64,000 nt of DNA, taken from positions 4,721 through 68,720 of the forward strand of contig CAYPIX010000005.1 of assembly GCA_964410875.1 (NCBI GenBank). Reading direction: 5' to 3'. The notes beneath the pieces are model-generated. The model was not told where the DNA came from. It saw only the letters and a program-made list of their open reading frames with translations, and searched no databases. Shown piece after piece: positions 24,296 to 33,500 of this stretch (positions within the stretch are counted from its first letter, which is position 1; each line of letters begins with the position of its first letter). The DNA is from an uncultured Kofleriaceae bacterium. GTDB taxonomy: Bacteria; Myxococcota_A; Polyangia; Haliangiales; Haliangiaceae. The position numbers and the translations under genes were made by a program.

Positions 24296-24915
24296 TTTGC
24301 CCCCTGTCGAAGGCGGGCCAATATCAGGTCGAGTGCAATGGGATTTTTTCCGCCCTCCGGGATGATCACGTCGGCCCACCGTTTCGAGGGCTCAACATAT
24401 GCGAGGTGCATAGGTCTAACGGTTTCCTGATATTGCTCGTAGACCGACATAAACGACCTGCCCCGTTTGTTGATGTCGCGCTTGATGCGTCTAAGAACAC
24501 GAAGATCAGAATCGGTGTCTACAAACACTCGTATATCAAGTTGTTCGCGAATCGACCTCTCGGCGAGTACCATAATGCCTTCGACGATCACCACACCTAG
24601 TGGAGAAACCCGTTCGGTGGTTTTCTTTCGTGTATGAGTCACGTAGTCGTAGACTGGGATCTCGACTGAATGGCCAGCGCGAAGTTCAGCAAGGTGTTTG
24701 GCCAATAAATCACTTTCAAGTGCATCAGGGTGATCGTAATTGACGCTATCCCTTAGGTCCTCAGCCAAATGGCCCTGATCGCGGTAGTAGCTGTCGTGCA
24801 AAATCGTCACGCATGCGTCGGAGCCGAGCGACTCCGCCAGATTCTTTGCCAGCCGAGTTTTTCCCGAACCAGAACCACCGGCCACACCTACAACCAGTGG
24901 TCTTTTGATCTCCAT
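24292..24915 (-). CDS. udk: Uridine kinase
   Basis: 207-aa ORF with P-loop VAGGSGSGKTRLAKNL and an overall Udk-like pattern. Confidence 0.85.
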
Positions 24916-25093
24916 TCGGTTCGTTTACCCGCCTAGCCGCGCCTTGCCAACCGATATCCATGGCCTTGGCTAGCCCGCCCGCGCCAAAGGTAAAGGTGCG
25001 CAAAGGTCTGATTTGTCCCGATCTAATTACCATTCACTTTAGCAATCGGTAACAATCCGCACACACGTGGTGGCCGCTGGTTTTGGGGGTTCG

Positions 25094-27523
25094 ATGCTGC
25101 GTTTGTTGGAAATCGTGCGAATACAAACCACAATTTACGCAATCGTCGGCGCGCTCATCGCTACCCAAGGGTTACCTCTTGCCCTAGCACAAGATTCGAA
25201 TTTTTTCTTAACCACTCCGGGCCCATTATCTAGTGAGCACGCAAAGTGGGACAACGAAGCCGGCTGCGATTCCTGCCACAGTGGCAAGTCGACTTCGAAT
25301 GCGAAGTGCTTAGGCTGTCACGAACATAAAGACCTGAAAAAAAGAATCGACTCGGGCAAGGGCTACCATTCCATAGCCAAGGTCAAAAAGAAGAACTGCG
25401 CAGTGTGTCACAACGAACACAAAGGGCGTAAGTACAACATCATGGGTTGGGGGTCAGTTCCCGGGGGAGAGCAAGGGTTCAACCACAGCCTTGCAGGCTG
25501 GGATAAAAAGGGAAAACACACCGTTCTTGCATGCAACGCATGTCACAAGAAAACCAACAAAGCGGGTCGTCGAATTTATCTTGGCGCAGACAAGGTTTGC
25601 GGGAATTGTCACAAAGACGACCAGCGCCATGGTTTCCAGCGTGCTTCCATGATGGTTTGCGAAAAATGCCATAGCGAAATCGCGTGGAAGCCAAGCCGAA
25701 AGAAGCTCGACTTCAATCACAACTCCGCGGCTGACGCAGACTTTCCCCAAGAAGGCGCGCACCAAGATGTCTCCTGTGGGAAGTGTCACCCAAAAACCAA
25801 ATTCAATTTAGGCTTCAAAGACCCAAACGAATGTCGCAACTGTCACAAGAGCTCGCACCAAGATCATCTATTTGATACCAAGGCCTGTACGTGGTGCCAC
25901 TCACCGAAGTTGAGCTCTTTTAGAAAACACAATTTCAAACACGAGGAGAAAACTCGCTTTGGCCTGAACGGTAAGCACGCAACTGCCCAATGTTACGACT
26001 GTCACACTTCTCGCTTGAAGAGCAAAAAACCAAGCAGGAGTTGTGCAAGTTGCCACGCGAATGACAATCCACACAGGGACCGTTTCAAGCAATTTGGAGA
26101 ACCGCCCAAGTGCCGCGTTTGCCACACGACCTCCAGTTTCTCCCCCAATCAATTTAGGGGCAACCATGGAGCTTCCACCGGTTTCCAACTCGAGGGTAAA
26201 CATAGAAAAATTACTTGTCGAAGCTGTCACCGCGGACGGAAGCCTTATGAATTTGAACCGCTCGAAGTGACAAAGAAAGGTACGTTGTGCATGAGCTGCC
26301 ATGCGCATAAGAACGTCCATAGCGGTGAGTTCACAGATGTTTCGGACATCGCTCTACGGCCCAAAACGCCCGAAGGACAAGCGAAACGATACTGCCTTGA
26401 ATGCCATAAAAACCCGGGGGCTCTCGATGTTCCGATTAGTGAAATCCCCCAGCACCAAGCCACTGGCAGCTTCCCCCTGGTTGGAGAGCACGCCAAAGTC
26501 GCATGCGATGGGTGTCACACCAATAGTGAGTTTAGAGGTACACCCAAGGAATGTGGAACAAGATGCCACCAGGACACGTTGCATAAAGGCAGCCTGGGTA
26601 AAGAGTGCTCTCGTTGCCATTCCCCAGGTGTCGCCAAATTCGCGAGCGACAGATTCGATCACAACGAAGACACAAAATTTCCTTTGCGAGGCGCGCACCA
26701 AGAGCTGCCCAAGTGTGTAGATTGCCACCCGAACCGGAAGTACGCAGAGACGCCATCAAATTGTTCGGCGGGGCAGTGTCATGCAAAGGACGATGCCCAC
26801 CAGGGTGCGTTAGGTACAACCTGCGAGAACTGTCACTCGGAGACCGAAGAGATTGTCTTTGACCACAACAAACAATCGGAGTTTGAGCTCGATGGAGCCC
26901 ATAGAACCACTGAATGCAGCAAGTGCCACTCCAGTATTACCTTTAAACCCACTCCCAAGACTTGCTATGGCGGTGGAGCTTGTCACCCAGAGCCCGACGC
27001 ACATAAAGGAGAGTATGGCGTTCTCTGCGAGGACTGTCACAACACAACATCCTTCACCCAAATAGAACCGCTACACAACGTGGGTGCTTTCTCTTTGACC
27101 GGCTCACACGATCGCATTTCCTGCGTAAGCTGTCACAAGAACAACCGCCTCTTAAAAGGAAGCGGCAACATGTGCATCAATTGTCATCGCCAAGACGACG
27201 TGCACTCGAACTCACTATCTCCGCAATGTGGTGATTGCCACAATCAATGGAGTTTTGCGCCAGCTAGATTTACTCACCTAACCGTGGGCTGCAACTTGGA
27301 AGGCCTGCACCGCACCCTACCCTGCCGAGACTGCCATAAGGGAGGAAACTTCGGCGCGCTTTCGCCTACGTGTTTCGGTTGCCACGCGGATACAGCGTTG
27401 CGAAAGGGAGTTAGCGGTACCGATCACACTGGGTTCATGACTTGTGCTGAGTGCCATAGTACAAATACCTGGCTACCAGGAATAGTTGGCGTTGGCTTTG
27501 GTAGGGAGTCCATATGCCGATGA
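25094..27523 (+). CDS. Periplasmic multihaem c-type cytochrome, ten triplets of haem-binding motifs
   Basis: ATG 25094 follows a GGGGG SD inside ORF 25067-27523. The signal peptide ends in ALAQD. I count 27 CXXCH plus CGTRCH, CSAGQCH and CYGGGACH. The recurring module is F-x-H...G-x-H...CXXCH. Confidence 0.9.
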   Translation: MLRLLEIVRIQTTIYAIVGALIATQGLPLALAQDSNFFLTTPGPLSSEHAKWDNEAGCDSCHSGKSTSNAKCLGCHEHKDLKKRIDSGKGYHSIAKVKKKNCAVCHNEHKGRKYNIMGWGSVPGGEQGFNHSLAGWDKKGKHTVLACNACHKKTNKAGRRIYLGADKVCGNCHKDDQRHGFQRASMMVCEKCHSEIAWKPSRKKLDFNHNSAADADFPQEGAHQDVSCGKCHPKTKFNLGFKDPNECRNCHKSSHQDHLFDTKACTWCHSPKLSSFRKHNFKHEEKTRFGLNGKHATAQCYDCHTSRLKSKKPSRSCASCHANDNPHRDRFKQFGEPPKCRVCHTTSSFSPNQFRGNHGASTGFQLEGKHRKITCRSCHRGRKPYEFEPLEVTKKGTLCMSCHAHKNVHSGEFTDVSDIALRPKTPEGQAKRYCLECHKNPGALDVPISEIPQHQATGSFPLVGEHAKVACDGCHTNSEFRGTPKECGTRCHQDTLHKGSLGKECSRCHSPGVAKFASDRFDHNEDTKFPLRGAHQELPKCVDCHPNRKYAETPSNCSAGQCHAKDDAHQGALGTTCENCHSETEEIVFDHNKQSEFELDGAHRTTECSKCHSSITFKPTPKTCYGGGACHPEPDAHKGEYGVLCEDCHNTTSFTQIEPLHNVGAFSLTGSHDRISCVSCHKNNRLLKGSGNMCINCHRQDDVHSNSLSPQCGDCHNQWSFAPARFTHLTVGCNLEGLHRTLPCRDCHKGGNFGALSPTCFGCHADTALRKGVSGTDHTGFMTCAECHSTNTWLPGIVGVGFGRESICR

Positions 27524-29178
27524 CCGCACTACGCATATCGGCAGTGGCATTCTGCTTATGTTCCTCTGTGCTTTCCCACGCCGAAGAAAAACGTTCACAG
27601 CGCAATTCGCGATTCTTTTTTGACGAACCCGAGGCCGATGAAGTCTTAACCCAAACAGGCTTTGACGGCAGCCTCGTTTTGACGACCTTATATTTCTCTG
27701 AGTCCTCTCAACCTTTCGATCTGGGAGGAGGGACGCCTGGGCAAAATGCAAGTGGCGTCACACGGTTCTTCACTGACTTAAGAGCCCGCCTGGATGTCGA
27801 GCACATAAAGGGAGGCCGCTGGCATCTGCGGACTGACATTCGAGGTCGGTTAACCCCCGGGGCTTGTCGTACGCAAAGCCGTAGTTCACTCGATGCTTGC
27901 ACGCGGTTTCAGTCGGGTTCTCTATCGGGGAATGAGATCGACTTTAACCAATTCTATTTCACACGCTCCAACGCTGGTTCAACGTGGAGTATTGGCCGTC
28001 AATTTGTGAGCGAGCTCACCTACACAAAGGTCGACGGAATCCGGTATGACCACAAGCTTACAGACAAATGGAAAGCTATCGGTTTCGCGGGTCTATACCC
28101 CGCACTCATTTCCCGGGATATCCGCTCCGATTACCCAGTACTCAACGATGCGTCCACCAGAACCCGCAGACGATCCTTGCCCGTCACGGGTGGCGGTGGT
28201 GTCGCGTACGAGTATGGCAACTACTTCGGCTCGTTTGGCGGAACGGTTATAGCTCCATTGACGAAAGAATTGGGACAGCTTGGCAACGGCGCAGGCGGCA
28301 CTGGCAGAATCGAAAAATTTCGCGTTTTCGCCAACGCTCAAGGGCACGCCAAATTACTTTCAAATTTAGATGTTCATCACTCCGCAATATTTGATGTCCG
28401 AGGCCCAAGTGGCCCCGGATTTACTAACCTCGGTCTCGGTCTTCACTTTCGCCCCTTTAGCGGTTTCCGAACCTACCTACAAGCCACCAGAGTGAGTACT
28501 GACATTCTAAATGTCAATGCGCAGTCTCAGCTCGAGACCCCAGGTAACCAGACCAACGTGGTGCAAAACAATGTAGCAGTACGACGGATTTCTCAAGAGT
28601 CAGCGCGTCTTGGGGCAACGGTTTCCGCGTTTGAGAACCGCTTTGAGCTCTCATCCATAGTCACAGCTCGAAGACGGCCCCGTATCACTCTCATATCTAA
28701 CGCTGGGAACCCTATTGAATTTGGAGCAGCCAAGGCAGTTGAAGTCACCGTTCATGCGGTAGACAAATACTCCTTCGCGGGACTGCGAATTGGGGGTTAC
28801 CTGACTCACTCCCTAGGTATAGGCAAGAACAATCTGAACCGAGGTAGTTACACCTCCGTAGGTGTAGACGCTCGCCGCTCCTTCCTACACGGGAAGGCTG
28901 AGTTTGACGGTTCAGTAACGTACCTTATCTCCACGGACGAAACGCGTTCTCAGTTATGCGACCCACAGAATATTGAAACTTGTTACGGCTCCGCCGCAAC
29001 GTCCTTGCTAGGGCTGACAGCAAATGGCTTCTATCGGTTTTCCGACAGTTGGTTTGTTCTGGGCGGCCTAAACCTGGCAACGCAGGCCAGCAATTCAATC
29101 AATATAGAAGGACAGCGTCGGCGCGCGCCTTCTATATTGATGACAACGTTCTTTAGCCGTCTCGCCTACCGGTTCTAG
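27514..29178 (+). CDS. Outer-membrane beta-barrel protein (porin-like), coupled to the cytochrome gene
   Basis: 554-aa ORF with a signal peptide ending SHAEE and many alternating strands. The C-terminus RLAYRF is a typical OMP terminal Phe. Its start overlaps the cytochrome stop. Confidence 0.7.
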   Translation: MPMTALRISAVAFCLCSSVLSHAEEKRSQRNSRFFFDEPEADEVLTQTGFDGSLVLTTLYFSESSQPFDLGGGTPGQNASGVTRFFTDLRARLDVEHIKGGRWHLRTDIRGRLTPGACRTQSRSSLDACTRFQSGSLSGNEIDFNQFYFTRSNAGSTWSIGRQFVSELTYTKVDGIRYDHKLTDKWKAIGFAGLYPALISRDIRSDYPVLNDASTRTRRRSLPVTGGGGVAYEYGNYFGSFGGTVIAPLTKELGQLGNGAGGTGRIEKFRVFANAQGHAKLLSNLDVHHSAIFDVRGPSGPGFTNLGLGLHFRPFSGFRTYLQATRVSTDILNVNAQSQLETPGNQTNVVQNNVAVRRISQESARLGATVSAFENRFELSSIVTARRRPRITLISNAGNPIEFGAAKAVEVTVHAVDKYSFAGLRIGGYLTHSLGIGKNNLNRGSYTSVGVDARRSFLHGKAEFDGSVTYLISTDETRSQLCDPQNIETCYGSAATSLLGLTANGFYRFSDSWFVLGGLNLATQASNSINIEGQRRRAPSILMTTFFSRLAYRF

Positions 29179-29473
29179 CGCGCATTAAGCAACAACCTAC
29201 CTCTGTGTCATCATGCGACACGCAGAGCATACTGAGAATTTTCCAAGTGTCTGCTCGCCTGAGACAAAGACATACCTATCGCGCTTCATCGCATAAAGGA
29301 ATACTGTGCGCCGGGTGTGAGCCTCCCAATGTCTACAAAAGACCTCAGGTCCTTTGTCCTCTTATTTCGTATTGAATCTTACCTATGTTACCGAGTAAAC
29401 TAGTAGGTCTAGAGTTTGCTTTGTAGAGTTGCCAGCGTTCGCTTTTGAACGCATCTTTTTGGGGGGGAAGACT

Positions 29474-30274
29474 GTGCGGAAATATATTTTTGCGTTGGTG
29501 GTATTAGCTGGGTGTGTCGGGGGAGACGAAGGCGACACAATTTCTTTTGATAGGCCGTCGATTTCTGAAGGGGCAATCGCACTGTACGATTTTGCGCCGC
29601 TTGACGGAGATATTCAGAATCGCATTGTCCCCGACCTAACCGAGAACGGAAACGATTTGTTCTTTGGAGGCGAATTTGACGTGGACGCCGAATGGGTTTT
29701 GGATGAAGAGGACCCGCTTGACAACGGAATTGCTTTTCTCGACAGGACCAGACTTCGAAGCGTAAGAAATATGACCAACATGACAGAAGCTTGCAACGAC
29801 ACAAGCTCTGTTACTATCGACGTAGTCGCGACCTCAGTTGGCGACCTGTCTGCTGGTACATTTGTTGAGTTTGCCAACCAGGAAGGCCGCGGTTTCAGGG
29901 TTAGGCACAATGGAACTCTTATTGAGGCCCTGGTTTCACATGGCGATGAAATAAATGGAAGCCCGCAATTTGCCTCCAATTCAGACATCTATGGTCTAGT
30001 ACGCAACCATATAGTAGTCCGCTCTGCACTGGGAGGAGCTGACGTTCACGTCGACCTCGATCGTGGCGAAACGCCTCGGCCAGGAAGCGATGGCCCTATG
30101 AATTGGGACAACGAGTTCGAACTCTACGTAGGCAACACCTTTAGCAACAATGACTCACTCGACCTTGGTACCACACTCCATCGGCTAGCGATTTATTGCG
30201 GCGAGCTTACAGACGAACAGCTCAGAGCAAATGCCGCTTCTGCGGGATTAGAAATCCCCGCAGAAGAAGAGTAA
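29474..30274 (+). CDS. Lipoprotein with a LamG/concanavalin-like C-terminal signature
   Basis: GTG 29474 follows a GGGGGGGAAG SD. The lipobox is VVLAGC. The C-terminal LHRLAIYCGELTDEQL resembles the LamG-domain end motif. Confidence 0.55.
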   Translation: MRKYIFALVVLAGCVGGDEGDTISFDRPSISEGAIALYDFAPLDGDIQNRIVPDLTENGNDLFFGGEFDVDAEWVLDEEDPLDNGIAFLDRTRLRSVRNMTNMTEACNDTSSVTIDVVATSVGDLSAGTFVEFANQEGRGFRVRHNGTLIEALVSHGDEINGSPQFASNSDIYGLVRNHIVVRSALGGADVHVDLDRGETPRPGSDGPMNWDNEFELYVGNTFSNNDSLDLGTTLHRLAIYCGELTDEQLRANAASAGLEIPAEEE

Positions 30275-30311
30275 TCAAAAGGTATTTTTTCCAATAACAA
30301 GAGGTCGAATT

Positions 30312-32144
30312 TTGAAAACAATCTTAGTAATAGCCGTAATTTCTGGCTCGGTGTTTCTCCCGAGCCTCGCGACTGCACAAACACGAACCGTTACATACAC
30401 CCAGCTTCGCAATGGTGATTACGCTGGAGAAGTTCAACGACTAGAGCCTCTGTCTTCTGGGCGAGTGCAAGCACAGGAACAGGTAGGGGCCGGTGGAGAA
30501 CATGCATCGACCGCCGTTTCCGGTCCTTTTGTTACGACCGCCGTTATTTCTTCCTACATGCGCGATGAAGACGGAGATGGCACTCCTGAAGTGCCAATGC
30601 CGGACATTATTCAGCTGGAAGGTTTTTTCGGTAGACTGTCAGCGACAGGAAGCATTGAACCCATTGAGGAATGCCCTCAGGGTCTAAAAGGCTTGGTTCT
30701 CACAAACAACTCGGGCGATCGATATCGAAACGGCCATGCTCCCAGAGTACTCACTCTAGGCGTCGCCGATGGCAAAGATGCCTCTGATCCTAGGCAACAT
30801 CTCTTTCGTATCAAGTACAACTATGCACCTGCGGATGAGGACGAAGAATCCAATGCACGCGCACGTTCGTATTCGAAGATTGTGAACGCCTGTGGTGAAG
30901 TGTTGTCCGTTGAACAAGAAGACGGACAGCTAGCAAGTCTCATCATCGCTAAAGAAAACGATGACTGCTCTGAGCACGACATGAAGCCCGAATTTCTCCA
31001 CAAAGACTACATCGACGGTGAATCTGGCGAGCGAGTACTAAACGTATTTGGTGTCTATGGCTGCAATGGCAATGGAAGAGACGACGGTTGGGCCAGCTAT
31101 GATGAAACTCGCTGCACATTTAGCGAAGAAGGAATTCCGAGTTCTTGTACAGGTGGGCAGCTCAGTGATGTTTCAATTATTACGCAAGAGCAACGCTCCC
31201 GAATGCTTGTAGAAGAGACCTCTGATCCCAACTTGATGGTCTATGTAGGGGTGGAGGGAAACACAAATCCACCCAATCAAGGTGTTGAGGTTGGCCTCGT
31301 ACGCATTGGTGAGGGAGGCGTTCTTGAGCAGGTATTTGAAGCGTATTACGCACGTTCGAGCCCTGGCAACGATCTCTATGAAACTGAGCCGCGCGGCTAT
31401 GGTTTAGTGGATGAGAACGGCGTCCCTACTGGCGTAATTCACATTACCAACACTCAAATCCACCGCGTCGATAACCGTACTAAAGGCGAAGCGAGGATGC
31501 TCGCTGGGCGAGTGCAAGTCGACGTTGAAGAGCAGACTATTTCCATTCTCAATCAACGGCAGTCGGTACATGATGTCATGCCCGGGCTTGAAGCCACCCA
31601 TGTCGGCGAGTGCGCCGTAGACAATGCTGGTCTCATCCTCAGCAGTTCCCATTCAGGTAATCACGAGAACCCGATGGTTGGCTTCTTGTATAACTGGACG
31701 CTGAACGACGATGTTCAACAGGCGAACCTAACGAACCTTGGTCAAACAAACCTAGTGGCGGCCCATGATAACCGATACATATCGAACATATTGGGCAACA
31801 ACCCGCGGAACCAAGGGAAGAACTTCCTTGGTTGCAAGGAAGTACCTAATCCATATTTCAATGTCGATGACGCGGATAACAAATGCGCAAAGACGTTAGT
31901 CGTGATGGGTGTTAACCCTCGTGAGGTTCGCGAGGGGACAAATATTCCATTCGACAAGCTAAGCACTGGGATTGTTGTTACTTCAGGTGTAATCGACGGC
32001 GATTGTGCTGGTACGGCCGGTGGAAACACGGGCGGAAGCGGCTCCGGTGGAGGTTGCTCAACCGGCCAAAACAGCTCAGCGGTTGGCCTATTGGCCTTCC
32101 TTGGGCTGATTGCTTGGCGTAGACGTCGGAATGAAGCAGTTTAG
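30312..32144 (+). CDS. Large exported protein with a MYXO-CTERM-like tail, unknown family
   Basis: 610-aa ORF with a TTG start after AAGAGG. The signal peptide ends in ATAQ. The C-terminus is GGGCSTGQNSSAVGLLAFLGLIAWRRRR. Confidence 0.7.
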   Translation: MKTILVIAVISGSVFLPSLATAQTRTVTYTQLRNGDYAGEVQRLEPLSSGRVQAQEQVGAGGEHASTAVSGPFVTTAVISSYMRDEDGDGTPEVPMPDIIQLEGFFGRLSATGSIEPIEECPQGLKGLVLTNNSGDRYRNGHAPRVLTLGVADGKDASDPRQHLFRIKYNYAPADEDEESNARARSYSKIVNACGEVLSVEQEDGQLASLIIAKENDDCSEHDMKPEFLHKDYIDGESGERVLNVFGVYGCNGNGRDDGWASYDETRCTFSEEGIPSSCTGGQLSDVSIITQEQRSRMLVEETSDPNLMVYVGVEGNTNPPNQGVEVGLVRIGEGGVLEQVFEAYYARSSPGNDLYETEPRGYGLVDENGVPTGVIHITNTQIHRVDNRTKGEARMLAGRVQVDVEEQTISILNQRQSVHDVMPGLEATHVGECAVDNAGLILSSSHSGNHENPMVGFLYNWTLNDDVQQANLTNLGQTNLVAAHDNRYISNILGNNPRNQGKNFLGCKEVPNPYFNVDDADNKCAKTLVVMGVNPREVREGTNIPFDKLSTGIVVTSGVIDGDCAGTAGGNTGGSGSGGGCSTGQNSSAVGLLAFLGLIAWRRRRNEAV

Positions 32145-32157
32145 ACAGGGGAACTAC

Positions 32158-32964
32158 ATGAAAAAGCCGAGATGGTTATTAGTTTGTATTACCGCTTTGC
32201 TTGCGCCTCTTGGGTGCGAGAGCGGCGGACCGCAAACAATCAGCGGAAACAATGCACAGCCCGTTTATGAATCTACTGTGAGCCCTCTTTTGGCTCGATG
32301 CGAAGGCGGGCCCTGCCATTCTGGGGCCGCGGATGAAGCGCCGACCAAATTTTGCGGTGACGGAGGAGGCTGCAGTTACGCTTCTGTCATTTCATTTCCA
32401 GTCATAGATAACTTCGGCAGAAATCCAAGTTTGATCTCAAGGGTTTCCTCCGAGCACTTTGGGACTTCTTTTAATGAAGAGGAGAAACAGAAAATATTGG
32501 CTTGGCTTTCAGCCGAGAGGGAAGCTAGAGGTGGCGTAGTCGATGTCCCCACTATAGCCAGCCCTGCATTCCAGCGTTTTTTCGACTGCATGACAATGGA
32601 GGAGTGGGATTTACATGACATGGGTGACTGGTCTGCCAAAGACACCAATAGCAACAATGGTGACGACACCTGCGCCACTTGTCACTCAGACTTTCAGTTT
32701 GGGTTTCACACTCCAAGGATCAATCAGGAGATGTTTGATGACCACAAAGACAACATCAACCTCGCTGGCTATTCCTTCATCATAGAAGATGTAAACCCAC
32801 TTAGTGGGACATCCACGATTCGCCCTGCCCACGCCAAGCTTATGCGCATGGCAACTGGTGCGCACCCACGATTTTCTTACGATGTTGCGGACGCAAACCG
32901 TATTGATCTAGACAACTGGGTTGAGGCGGTCAACAGGCGTATAGAGGAGGACGATTGTCCATGA
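32158..32964 (+). CDS. Lipoprotein with CXXCH and C-x4-CH motifs (putative haem c protein), paralog A
   Basis: Internal start MKKPRWLLVCITALLAPLGC. It has CEGGPCHSG in the N-terminal part and CATCH in the C-terminal domain shared with the next gene. Confidence 0.6.
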   Translation: MKKPRWLLVCITALLAPLGCESGGPQTISGNNAQPVYESTVSPLLARCEGGPCHSGAADEAPTKFCGDGGGCSYASVISFPVIDNFGRNPSLISRVSSEHFGTSFNEEEKQKILAWLSAEREARGGVVDVPTIASPAFQRFFDCMTMEEWDLHDMGDWSAKDTNSNNGDDTCATCHSDFQFGFHTPRINQEMFDDHKDNINLAGYSFIIEDVNPLSGTSTIRPAHAKLMRMATGAHPRFSYDVADANRIDLDNWVEAVNRRIEEDDCP

Positions 32965-33500
32965 GGGGAACTTGTATGCAGAAATCATATGCAACAATTG
33001 GTTTGGCAATCTTCTTTGCTGTGGGATGCACAGGCGAATTTGAGGATGTTGGACCTCAGACCATCTCAAATGTTGACCCATTGGCAGTGTGGTCTTCCTG
33101 TATGAATTTTGATGATTGGGAAGAGTCTGGAATGGGCTCATGGGCCACAAAGCCGGCATTTGGCGGTGTCGTCTGCGCATCTTGTCACCTCTATGGTCAA
33201 GGCGGGTTCCGCACAGATGAAGAAAGCTTGCACATGTTTGAATTCAACCGATTCAGCACAATGATCGGTGGTTTCTTTGTGGCAATGGACGGAAGAGTCG
33301 AAGGTGCTGTGCAGCAACTCCAATCAGTAGGGATGGGAGCTGGCCTTCACCCCACTTACCCAACAGGTGGAGTCAACGGCGTGGGAGATCCCCATTTTGA
33401 CAGCCTAAACGAATTTGTTCGCTTGACCCAGCAACGAGTTGATCAAGGGGATTGCAGCGGTGGTGGCTATCCTAGCGAATTGCCCGTCTTCGAGGAATGA
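32961..33500 (+). CDS. Lipoprotein with a CXXCH motif, paralog B
   Basis: The ATG forms an ATGA overlap with the upstream stop. The lipobox is FFAVGC and the haem motif is CASCH. It is colinear with the C-terminal domain of paralog A (CM..(D/E)W...MG.W..K...C..CH...GF.T...MF...HP...DC). Confidence 0.6.
   Translation: MRGTCMQKSYATIGLAIFFAVGCTGEFEDVGPQTISNVDPLAVWSSCMNFDDWEESGMGSWATKPAFGGVVCASCHLYGQGGFRTDEESLHMFEFNRFSTMIGGFFVAMDGRVEGAVQQLQSVGMGAGLHPTYPTGGVNGVGDPHFDSLNEFVRLTQQRVDQGDCSGGGYPSELPVFEE

Follow-up and report, generated by a model that had tools for sequence, protein, structure and literature searches.

A 30-Haem Cytochrome Encoded Together with an Outer-Membrane Barrel in Haliangiales: A Candidate Trans-Envelope Electron Conduit

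The Cytochrome-Barrel Locus

The window analyzed here, 64,000 nucleotides of contig CAYPIX010000005.1 (assembly GCA_964410875.1), originates from an uncultured Kofleriaceae bacterium belonging to the order Haliangiales of the Myxococcota. It encodes a c-type cytochrome with 30 haem-binding sites, and the 3' end of this gene is overlapped by the gene for a putative outer-membrane beta-barrel. Such pairs are conserved in the order, mostly downstream of a gene for an iron-sulfur (Fe-S) membrane protein, and the three proteins may together form a conduit for electrons across the cell envelope. The main features of the locus are:

25094..27523, + strand: gene for the 30-haem c-type cytochrome (809 amino acids from the ATG at 25094; 818 amino acids from the GTG at 25067)
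25094..25189, + strand: Sec-type signal peptide, MLRLLEIVRIQTTIYAIVGALIATQGLPLALA followed by QDS, as read from the sequence
27467..27520, + strand: conserved C-terminal tail of the cytochrome, ending GRESICR and including the invariant C817
27503..27508, + strand: ribosome-binding site of the barrel gene (AGGGAG), located within the 3' end of the cytochrome gene
27514..29178, + strand: outer-membrane beta-barrel gene (554 amino acids; signal peptide, about 22-24 strands, no plug, C-terminus ...LAYRF)

The 809-residue form of the cytochrome (P0001) is the version picked by gene callers; residues are numbered throughout in the frame of the 818-residue form that starts at GTG 25067. The stop codon occupies 27521-27523. 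The signal peptide begins at M10, has no lipobox cysteine and is predicted to be cleaved between ALA and QDS. Its position is supported by the family alignment, where A41 is invariant and A39 nearly so. The first ATG of the barrel gene, found five nucleotides downstream of the AGGGAG sequence, overlaps the cytochrome gene by 10 nucleotides, and a second ATG at 27520 gives a four-nucleotide ATGA overlap.

A regular-expression count of the cytochrome finds 27 CXXCH motifs and three variants, CGTRCH (C496), CSAGQCH (C566) and CYGGGACH (C633), giving 30 sites. This programmatic recount agrees with an earlier reading, made from the sequence only, of 27 canonical and three variant motifs in a protein of 809-818 amino acids. 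In 5000 shuffled versions of the protein CXXCH occurs 0.39 times on average and at most four times. The protein has 64 histidines, and 60 of its 62 cysteines lie inside the 30 haem motifs. The remaining two, C742 (27290-27292) in module 10 and C817 (27515-27517) in the C-terminal tail, are invariant in 46 of 46 homologs, and the tail itself is conserved in the family as RES(I/V)CR (27500-27520). These two residues could form a disulfide pinning the C-terminus to module 10, or they could be part of an element recognized by the barrel.

Trihaem Modules

When cut at its F-x-H elements the cytochrome falls into ten modules of 67-94 amino acids, each with three haem sites. The first sites of consecutive modules are 67-96 residues apart, with a mean of 76.

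25196..25432, + strand: module 1 (residues 44-122), a divergent trihaem module with sites C67, C81 and C111
25433..26416, + strand: modules 2-5 (residues 123-450), four trihaem repeats in which every site is CXXCH
26417..27049, + strand: modules 6-8 (residues 451-661), with expanded middle sites
27050..27466, + strand: modules 9-10 (residues 662-800), module 10 carrying the extra invariant cysteine C742

The module pattern can be written F-x-H ... G-x-H-x(4-5)-CXXCH-x(11-19)-CX(2-5)CH-x(2-4)-H-...-CXXCH, with three residues following site 2 in most modules. In each of modules 2-10 a G-x-H comes before site 1, and F-x-H is found in modules 2, 3, 4, 7, 8, and 10. Ten sub-alignments, one per module, were cut from a family alignment of 46 members and compared profile against profile with HHalign. 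Every pair within modules 2-10 reached a probability of 93-99.5%, and the divergent module 1 reached 55-95% to the others; its invariant non-motif histidines are H58, H87, H101, and H118. The repeats also appear off the diagonal in a BLASTP comparison of the cytochrome with a paralog (26% identity, E 2e-24). The sequence-only reading had proposed ten consecutive triplets of sites, most of them preceded by F-(D/N)-H...G-x-H, and both proposals hold: the periodic trihaem unit is seen in the alignment as well as by HHalign, and modules 2-10 are homologous to each other.

Modules 6, 7, and 8 are one another's closest relatives, with HHalign scores of 71-110. In the family the third sites of modules 5 and 10 can also be expanded, which suggested an origin of the protein by doubling of a half with five modules. 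This idea was rejected because the closest relative of module i is not module i+5, while 6, 7, and 8 are closest together.

The Cytochrome Family and its Haem Ligands

At a limit of E 0.001, about 3000 clusters of the protein database match the cytochrome. The best 120 of these are 763-876 amino acids long and 47-69% identical to it, and the named sources among them are Haliangium ochraceum, where the homolog is P0066, Kofleriaceae, and metagenome-assembled genomes (MAGs) labeled 'Myxococcales'. Exactly 30 haem sites are found in 198 of 202 family members. Among the 46 aligned homologs (47-69% identity) a single one of the 30 Cys...Cys-His sites departs from invariance, site 4, whose first cysteine (C156) is kept in 45; the other 29 are invariant. 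A version with ten modules had been called notable for a Myxococcota-like genome. It is not rare, as the gene is near-core in one order of that phylum and the matches amount to some 3000 clusters.

Outside the motifs, 31 histidines are invariant in the same 46 homologs, and each module has three conserved distal histidines. The third of these is located two to four residues after the histidine of site 2, mostly three (CH-x3-H). Between sites 1 and 2 there is just a short segment, in which no histidine is conserved. No methionine column is conserved at 90% or more in the family; the best are M126 (87%) and M409 (78%), the latter within a CXXCH. Every haem thus appears, from the alignment, to have a conserved histidine available as its sixth ligand. 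All-bis-His ligation would be the parsimonious reading, because every family member has at least one histidine between sites 29 and 30 and no methionine column reaches 90%. Homologs of CcmE, CcmF, and CcmC, which would belong to the System I apparatus for haem attachment, are encoded in the window's genome.

Since some multihaem cytochromes are enzymes, the possibility that this protein is a reductase or oxidase similar to Nrf, Hao or Otr was considered. It was rejected on the bookkeeping of ligands, as at least 30 conserved distal histidines are present for 30 haems. The protein is moreover purely repetitive, and it has neither a CXXCK or other open-coordination site nor any domain that is not a cytochrome domain. 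A catalytic role is accordingly regarded as highly improbable.

The Expanded Middle Sites

The three variant motifs were noted from the beginning as the second sites of modules 6, 7, and 8, and the module boundaries confirm this position:

26552..26569, + strand: CGTRCH, a CX3CH site (module 6, site 17)
26762..26782, + strand: CSAGQCH, a CX4CH site (module 7, site 20)
26963..26986, + strand: CYGGGACH, a CX5CH site (module 8, site 23)

Their spacing was counted in the 198 family members with exactly 30 sites. The middle site of module 7 is CX4CH in 197 of them. In module 6 the middle site is CX3CH in 149 members, CX5CH in 46, CX2CH in two, and CX4CH in one, and in module 8, 170 members have CX2CH and 28 have CX5CH. 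In a tree of 87 copies the CX5CH of module 8 goes back to one event, in the clade to which the window's protein belongs. CX4CH is also found at the middle site of module 2 (42 members), module 3 (95 members), and module 4 (30 members). Sites at position 1 are all CX2CH, except for site 7 in two members. The variant sites are thus conserved as Cys...Cys-His in the homologs. They are found in consecutive modules because modules 6-8 are the most recently related trio, and the CX3-5CH middle sites are an inherited trait of these related modules, tolerated by the middle haem pocket, and not a sign of decay.

CX4CH sites occur in c3-type cytochromes, and CX3CH sites are likewise already known. A CX5CH haem site is not mentioned in the literature searched, where the coverage of subscription papers is incomplete. 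If the haem is indeed attached at this site, CX5CH would be a new natural motif for attachment of haem c, handled by ordinary Ccm. With the conserved CX3CH, CX4CH, and CX5CH sites of the family, nature offers a set on which the limits of haem attachment by Ccm could be tested.

Relation to Known Multihaem Cytochromes

The Pfam family Cytochrome_C7 (PF14522) matches the whole protein with 110 bits over 12 stretches, and the c3 families and the MtrC/F domains rank behind it. Single modules are borderline: just two of them reach the 24.8-bit cut-off of PF14522, module 3 with 25.9 and module 5 with 24.9 bits, and module 2 falls slightly short of it with 24.1 bits. Searches of the PDB with the single sequence or with a profile of the whole length (A1) gave only marginal or spurious matches, and a profile of pooled modules (A2) was needed. 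The top matches of A2 are 16-haem cytochromes of the HmcA type (1Z1N, E 2.7e-11; 2E84, E 3.2e-10). The entries 1H29 and 19HC also belong to the best matches, which are HmcA-type and nine-haem cytochromes, and c3 cytochromes are matched too. GSU1996 (3OV0) is matched at E 6.9e-10, MtrF and MtrA (6R2Q chain A, E 5.4e-8) are matched as well, and the c7 cytochrome 3SJ1 is reached just at E 0.002. The per-domain scores of these PDB matches are weak throughout.

The tandem arrangement is that of the Geobacter c7 polymers. GSU1996 and GSU0592 (12 haems) and GSU2210 (27 haems; PMC10138318) are, like the window's protein, single polypeptides of tandem trihaem class III modules of about 70-80 amino acids, exported by Sec and holding about one haem per 26 residues. 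Clusters with 27 haems are also reported in a survey of Desulfuromonadia (PMC11492766). Size alone is therefore not new, since long haem 'nanowire' polypeptides are known from Geobacter. The protein described here differs in having ten modules and 30 haems, in its CX3-5CH middle sites, in being paired with an outer-membrane barrel and usually also with an inner-membrane protein of Fe-S/b type, and in its lineage, which is Haliangiales within the Myxococcota rather than Desulfuromonadia.

The layout of the single domain differs as well. In GSU1996 each domain contains one haem with His-Met ligation (PMC10138318), whereas the present family appears, judged by its alignment, to have conserved histidines for all haems and no conserved methionine. 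The sequence of 3OV0 has a conserved M-x-KGKSC between haem sites 1 and 2. In PpcA, a c7 cytochrome, the third axial ligand is His47, which is also located between sites 1 and 2; the third distal histidine of the window's modules follows site 2. The resemblance to c7 polymers pointed out in the sequence-only reading can thus be kept in part. The tandem trihaem class III modules and the match to 3OV0 support it, as does the match of the whole protein, though hardly of its single modules, to PF14522, but the domain layout does not, given the position of the third histidine, the missing methionine and best matches that are of the HmcA type. The modules are best assigned, by sequence comparison, to the class III (c3/c7) superfamily and not specifically to c7-polymer domains.

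HmcA and the nine-haem cytochromes, the best profile matches, have a tetrahaem c3-like repeat where the repeat of the window's protein is trihaem. In the Hmc and Tmc complexes of sulfate reducers a periplasmic class III cytochrome is coupled to cytochrome b in the membrane and to an Fe-S module in the cytoplasm. By analogy, a similar logic may apply in Haliangiales, with a high-molecular-weight class III cytochrome coupled to membrane b and Fe-S components. In contrast to Hmc/Tmc, the Fe-S and membrane parts are here fused in one protein, and an outer-membrane barrel belongs to the unit.

The Outer-Membrane Barrel

An AlphaFold model of the barrel protein, built from an alignment of 39 members, has a predicted local distance difference test score (pLDDT) of 79 and a predicted TM-score (pTM) of 0.75. 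It is all-beta, with about 22 long strands and no plug. All 50 of the listed Foldseek matches in the PDB are outer-membrane barrels (E 1e-9 to 2e-7), among them porins, AlgE, ushers, and the barrels of TonB-dependent receptors. The best query-normalized TM-scores, about 0.47, are to 22-strand barrels.

The alignment of the barrel family has no conserved stretch of 7-10 columns; the loci of relatives were found using the cytochrome alignment. This gave 80 loci from species representatives, with 82 cytochrome copies among them; the sources are without exception Haliangiales, Kofleriaceae or 'Myxococcales' MAGs. A barrel homolog on the same strand is found directly downstream of 74 of the 82 copies, and in five of the eight exceptions less than 350 nucleotides are left downstream. 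The pair is also present in all four metagenome contexts, with overlaps of 4-10 nucleotides. The barrel partner in locus L001 is 29% identical to the window's barrel (E 1e-57). In G279, a distant relative from another family of the class, the barrel is matched at E 1e-40, and the open reading frame directly upstream of it encodes 792 amino acids, contains 30 motifs and has the tail ...ESVCR.

Matches to the barrel profile occur in 136 of the 147 genomes of Haliangiales, in 77 of the 79 that are of high quality, and in 22 of the 25 genera, and many of these genomes hold 2-5 copies. In an even sample of the phylum the barrel is found in eight of 301 genomes, of which just one is from outside the order. 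The barrel, and with it the cytochrome, is near-core in Haliangiales, and the barrel is nearly absent elsewhere in the phylum.

The ushers FimD and PapC are among the Foldseek matches (E about 8e-9), and the barrel might accordingly be an export pore that places the 30-haem protein on the cell surface or in the medium as an extracellular wire or shuttle. The RES(I/V)CR tail and the invariant C742 and C817 could in that case be an element for recognition or anchoring. The barrel, however, has neither the plug nor the periplasmic domains of an usher, and a folded, haem-loaded mature protein of 777 residues would be a demanding substrate. The inner-membrane redox protein of the canonical operon, described below, further suggests a fixed chain and not a released product. 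Taken together this makes export through the barrel quite unlikely.

The Canonical Operon

A protein of about 730 amino acids is encoded directly upstream, on the same strand, of 65 of the 82 cytochrome copies. It has Fer4 domains and a weak, sub-threshold match to DUF4405. Among 63 homologs all 16 cysteines of four cluster motifs are invariant, as are His538/His552 and His706/His720 in the membrane region. A transmembrane dihaem cytochrome b is classically recognized by two H-x13-H pairs in its membrane helices. We infer from these sequence features that the protein would carry four [4Fe-4S] clusters on the cytoplasmic side, fused to a dihaem cytochrome b.

The window's own genome encodes this protein on contig C160. 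It has 741 amino acids, no signal peptide, four cysteine clusters, and at least four hydrophobic helices. The Fer4 gene is there followed, with a four-nucleotide overlap, by a cytochrome copy that is 65% identical to that of the window and is ended by the end of the contig (L005:1447-5117). Contig C7 ends within a further copy of the barrel gene, 61% identical (L095:5882-7099). As the cytochrome copy on C160 and the barrel copy on C7 both end at contig ends, the two pieces are probably one operon broken by assembly.

The N-terminal part of the Fer4 protein, about 220 amino acids (L005:1447-2100), has no family match, and inspection by eye points to a similarity with ligand-binding regulatory domains (...LRQMPLFDGIP...). 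If this is a real regulatory domain, the conduit discussed below could be gated by a cytoplasmic signal.

The tree of 87 copies joins the window's cytochrome and the Fer4-linked one of its own genome as sisters, with a support of 100. From this position it follows that the pair in the window is a lineage-specific duplicate of cytochrome and barrel without a Fer4 gene of its own. Duplication of the pair is recurrent, since two loci have tandem cytochrome copies (L020, near 6031 and 10259; L077, near 675 and 3841) and many genomes hold several barrel copies. The window's copy has the longer branch of the two sisters (0.39 against 0.19), and together with the missing Fer4 gene this might mean that the pair is a redundant, drifting paralog headed for loss, with the function residing in the copy on C160 and C7. 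Yet its 30 haem sites, distal histidines, signal peptide, C-terminal tail and coupled barrel are all intact, and duplicated pairs recur elsewhere. It is therefore very unlikely that the window's pair is on its way to being lost.

A separate clade, also with a support of 100, has no Fer4 gene. Here the barrel gene is followed by a gene for a giant cytochrome of 1160-1377 amino acids with 23-24 CXXCH motifs, which carries GSu_C4xC__C2xCH domains (L001:12066-15548, and also L079, L080, L082, L085, and L090). By its resemblance to the surface cytochromes of classical porin-cytochrome clusters, this 23-24-haem protein is a candidate outer-surface partner. Any other open reading frame with at least three CXXCH motifs was found in just 11 of the 80 loci, and none beside the pair in the window.

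A Proposed Trans-Envelope Conduit

It is proposed that the 30-haem wire and the barrel form a conduit that spans the periplasm and crosses the outer membrane, to which the canonical operon adds the Fe-S/b fusion in the inner membrane. We give this proposal a probability of roughly 0.55. The cytochrome would be exported by Sec, and the Ccm system (System I) of the genome would attach 30 covalent haems, all of them probably low-spin and bis-His. The protein would then be a pure electron-transfer wire, its ten trihaem modules joined in a row. At one end this chain of haems would dock in or thread the plug-less barrel, as MtrA does in MtrB, and the remainder would span the periplasm. In the canonical operon the upstream Fe-S/cytochrome b fusion would feed or drain the wire at the inner membrane, and the three gene products could thus link redox carriers of the cytoplasm or membrane to the cell exterior.

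The arrangement resembles that of known porin-cytochrome conduits. In MtrAB(C) of Shewanella, PioAB/MtoAB and OmaB-OmbB-OmcB the gene for a periplasmic multihaem cytochrome adjoins that of a plug-less barrel, and the shared traits are an exported multihaem cytochrome without a catalytic site and a barrel gene in the same orientation. The clade with the giant cytochrome comes close to the classical clusters, where an outer-surface partner is encoded as well. Most operons of Haliangiales are, unlike these conduits, without an extracellular cytochrome. Where cytochromes of the MtrA type have 8-10 haems, the present ones have 30, which would be enough for the periplasm and the membrane. GSU1996 has 12 haems in an extended 12 nm, according to a reference title in PMC10138318. 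By extrapolation 30 haems could cover about 30 nm, approximately the width of the periplasm plus the outer membrane, and the near-invariant count of 30 fits a constraint on length. The fixed count makes the matching of wire length to periplasm width a testable idea.

The function had been suggested in the sequence-only reading to be that of an electron store or nanowire. The cytochrome could indeed be a free periplasmic store similar to GSU1996, and the barrel a co-expressed porin with a separate role, for instance in the entry of a soluble redox substrate. The tandem trihaem modules are of the superfamily of GSU1996, the literature gives periplasmic haem 'nanowires' a role in storage (PMC10138318), and the main operon type is without a conserved extracellular cytochrome. 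An unrelated porin would however be expected neither to overlap the stop codon of the cytochrome with its start nor to stay in a near-obligate pair with it across more than 50% divergence and even in a distant relative, as this large plug-less barrel does, and the strict count of 30 haems suggests a constraint on length, not mere capacity. A free store is for these reasons considered rather unlikely. The earlier suggestion overlooks the coupled barrel and the Fe-S/dihaem-b-like protein of the inner membrane, and it is because of these two, the first conserved and translationally coupled, that a trans-envelope conduit is preferred over a free capacitor.

Several observations nevertheless weigh against such a conduit. 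The barrel has no match in Pfam or NCBIfam at E 0.01 or better, including MtrB/PioB (PF11854), and is in sequence not detectably related to MtrB, PioB or OmbB; MtrB is also absent among its top 50 Foldseek matches. The argument that the cytochrome enters or binds the barrel is an indirect one. An AlphaFold model of the cytochrome without haems is poor (pLDDT 56.6), and a Foldseek search with this haem-free model gave no match at E below 1. The window's copy has no gene for an inner-membrane partner beside it. An extracellular cytochrome partner is confined to one clade and not conserved in the main operon type. Finally, those members of the order that are in culture are described as aerobic, which makes a physiological electron sink or source outside the cell hypothetical.

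Tandem trihaem polymers and the porin-cytochrome principle are already known. In the literature searched, which leaves many subscription papers uncovered, no description was found of the Haliangiales cytochrome family, of its barrel family or of the three-gene unit. It is possible, though somewhat doubtful, that the unit is an undescribed three-part conduit, near-core in Haliangiales and made up of a Fer4/dihaem-b fusion, a 30-haem polypeptide that acts as a ruler of the periplasm, and a new family of plug-less barrels. Extracellular electron transfer is known mainly from Shewanella and Geobacter, and Haliangiales have apparently arrived at another solution, where one very long cytochrome takes the place of a relay of small ones. 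The cytochrome-barrel system is found in almost every genome of an order that is abundant in soil, sediment, and wastewater and that is not regarded as electroactive. If the conduit is real, exchange of electrons with the surroundings would be routine in bacteria that are taken to be aerobic predators. The ecology of Haliangiales would then have to be reread, for instance with respect to survival under oxygen limitation and to the redox cycling of metals and humic substances.

Neighboring Genes and Genome Context

Scans of the region 24700-29600 for promoters and terminators gave results no better than those for shuffled sequence. Directly downstream of the barrel gene, at 29429-33500, lies a cluster of four genes for exported proteins without Pfam matches. 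Two of these are paralogs with one CXXCH each, and another product of the cluster, 610 amino acids long, has a hydrophobic anchor at its C-terminus. In the other loci that were inspected by eye, the cluster did not show up as a conserved neighbor. The genome to which the window belongs is 4.1 Mb with about 52% GC, and most genomes of the order in the sample are 6-12 Mb. This reduced genome still keeps two copies of the cytochrome-barrel system.

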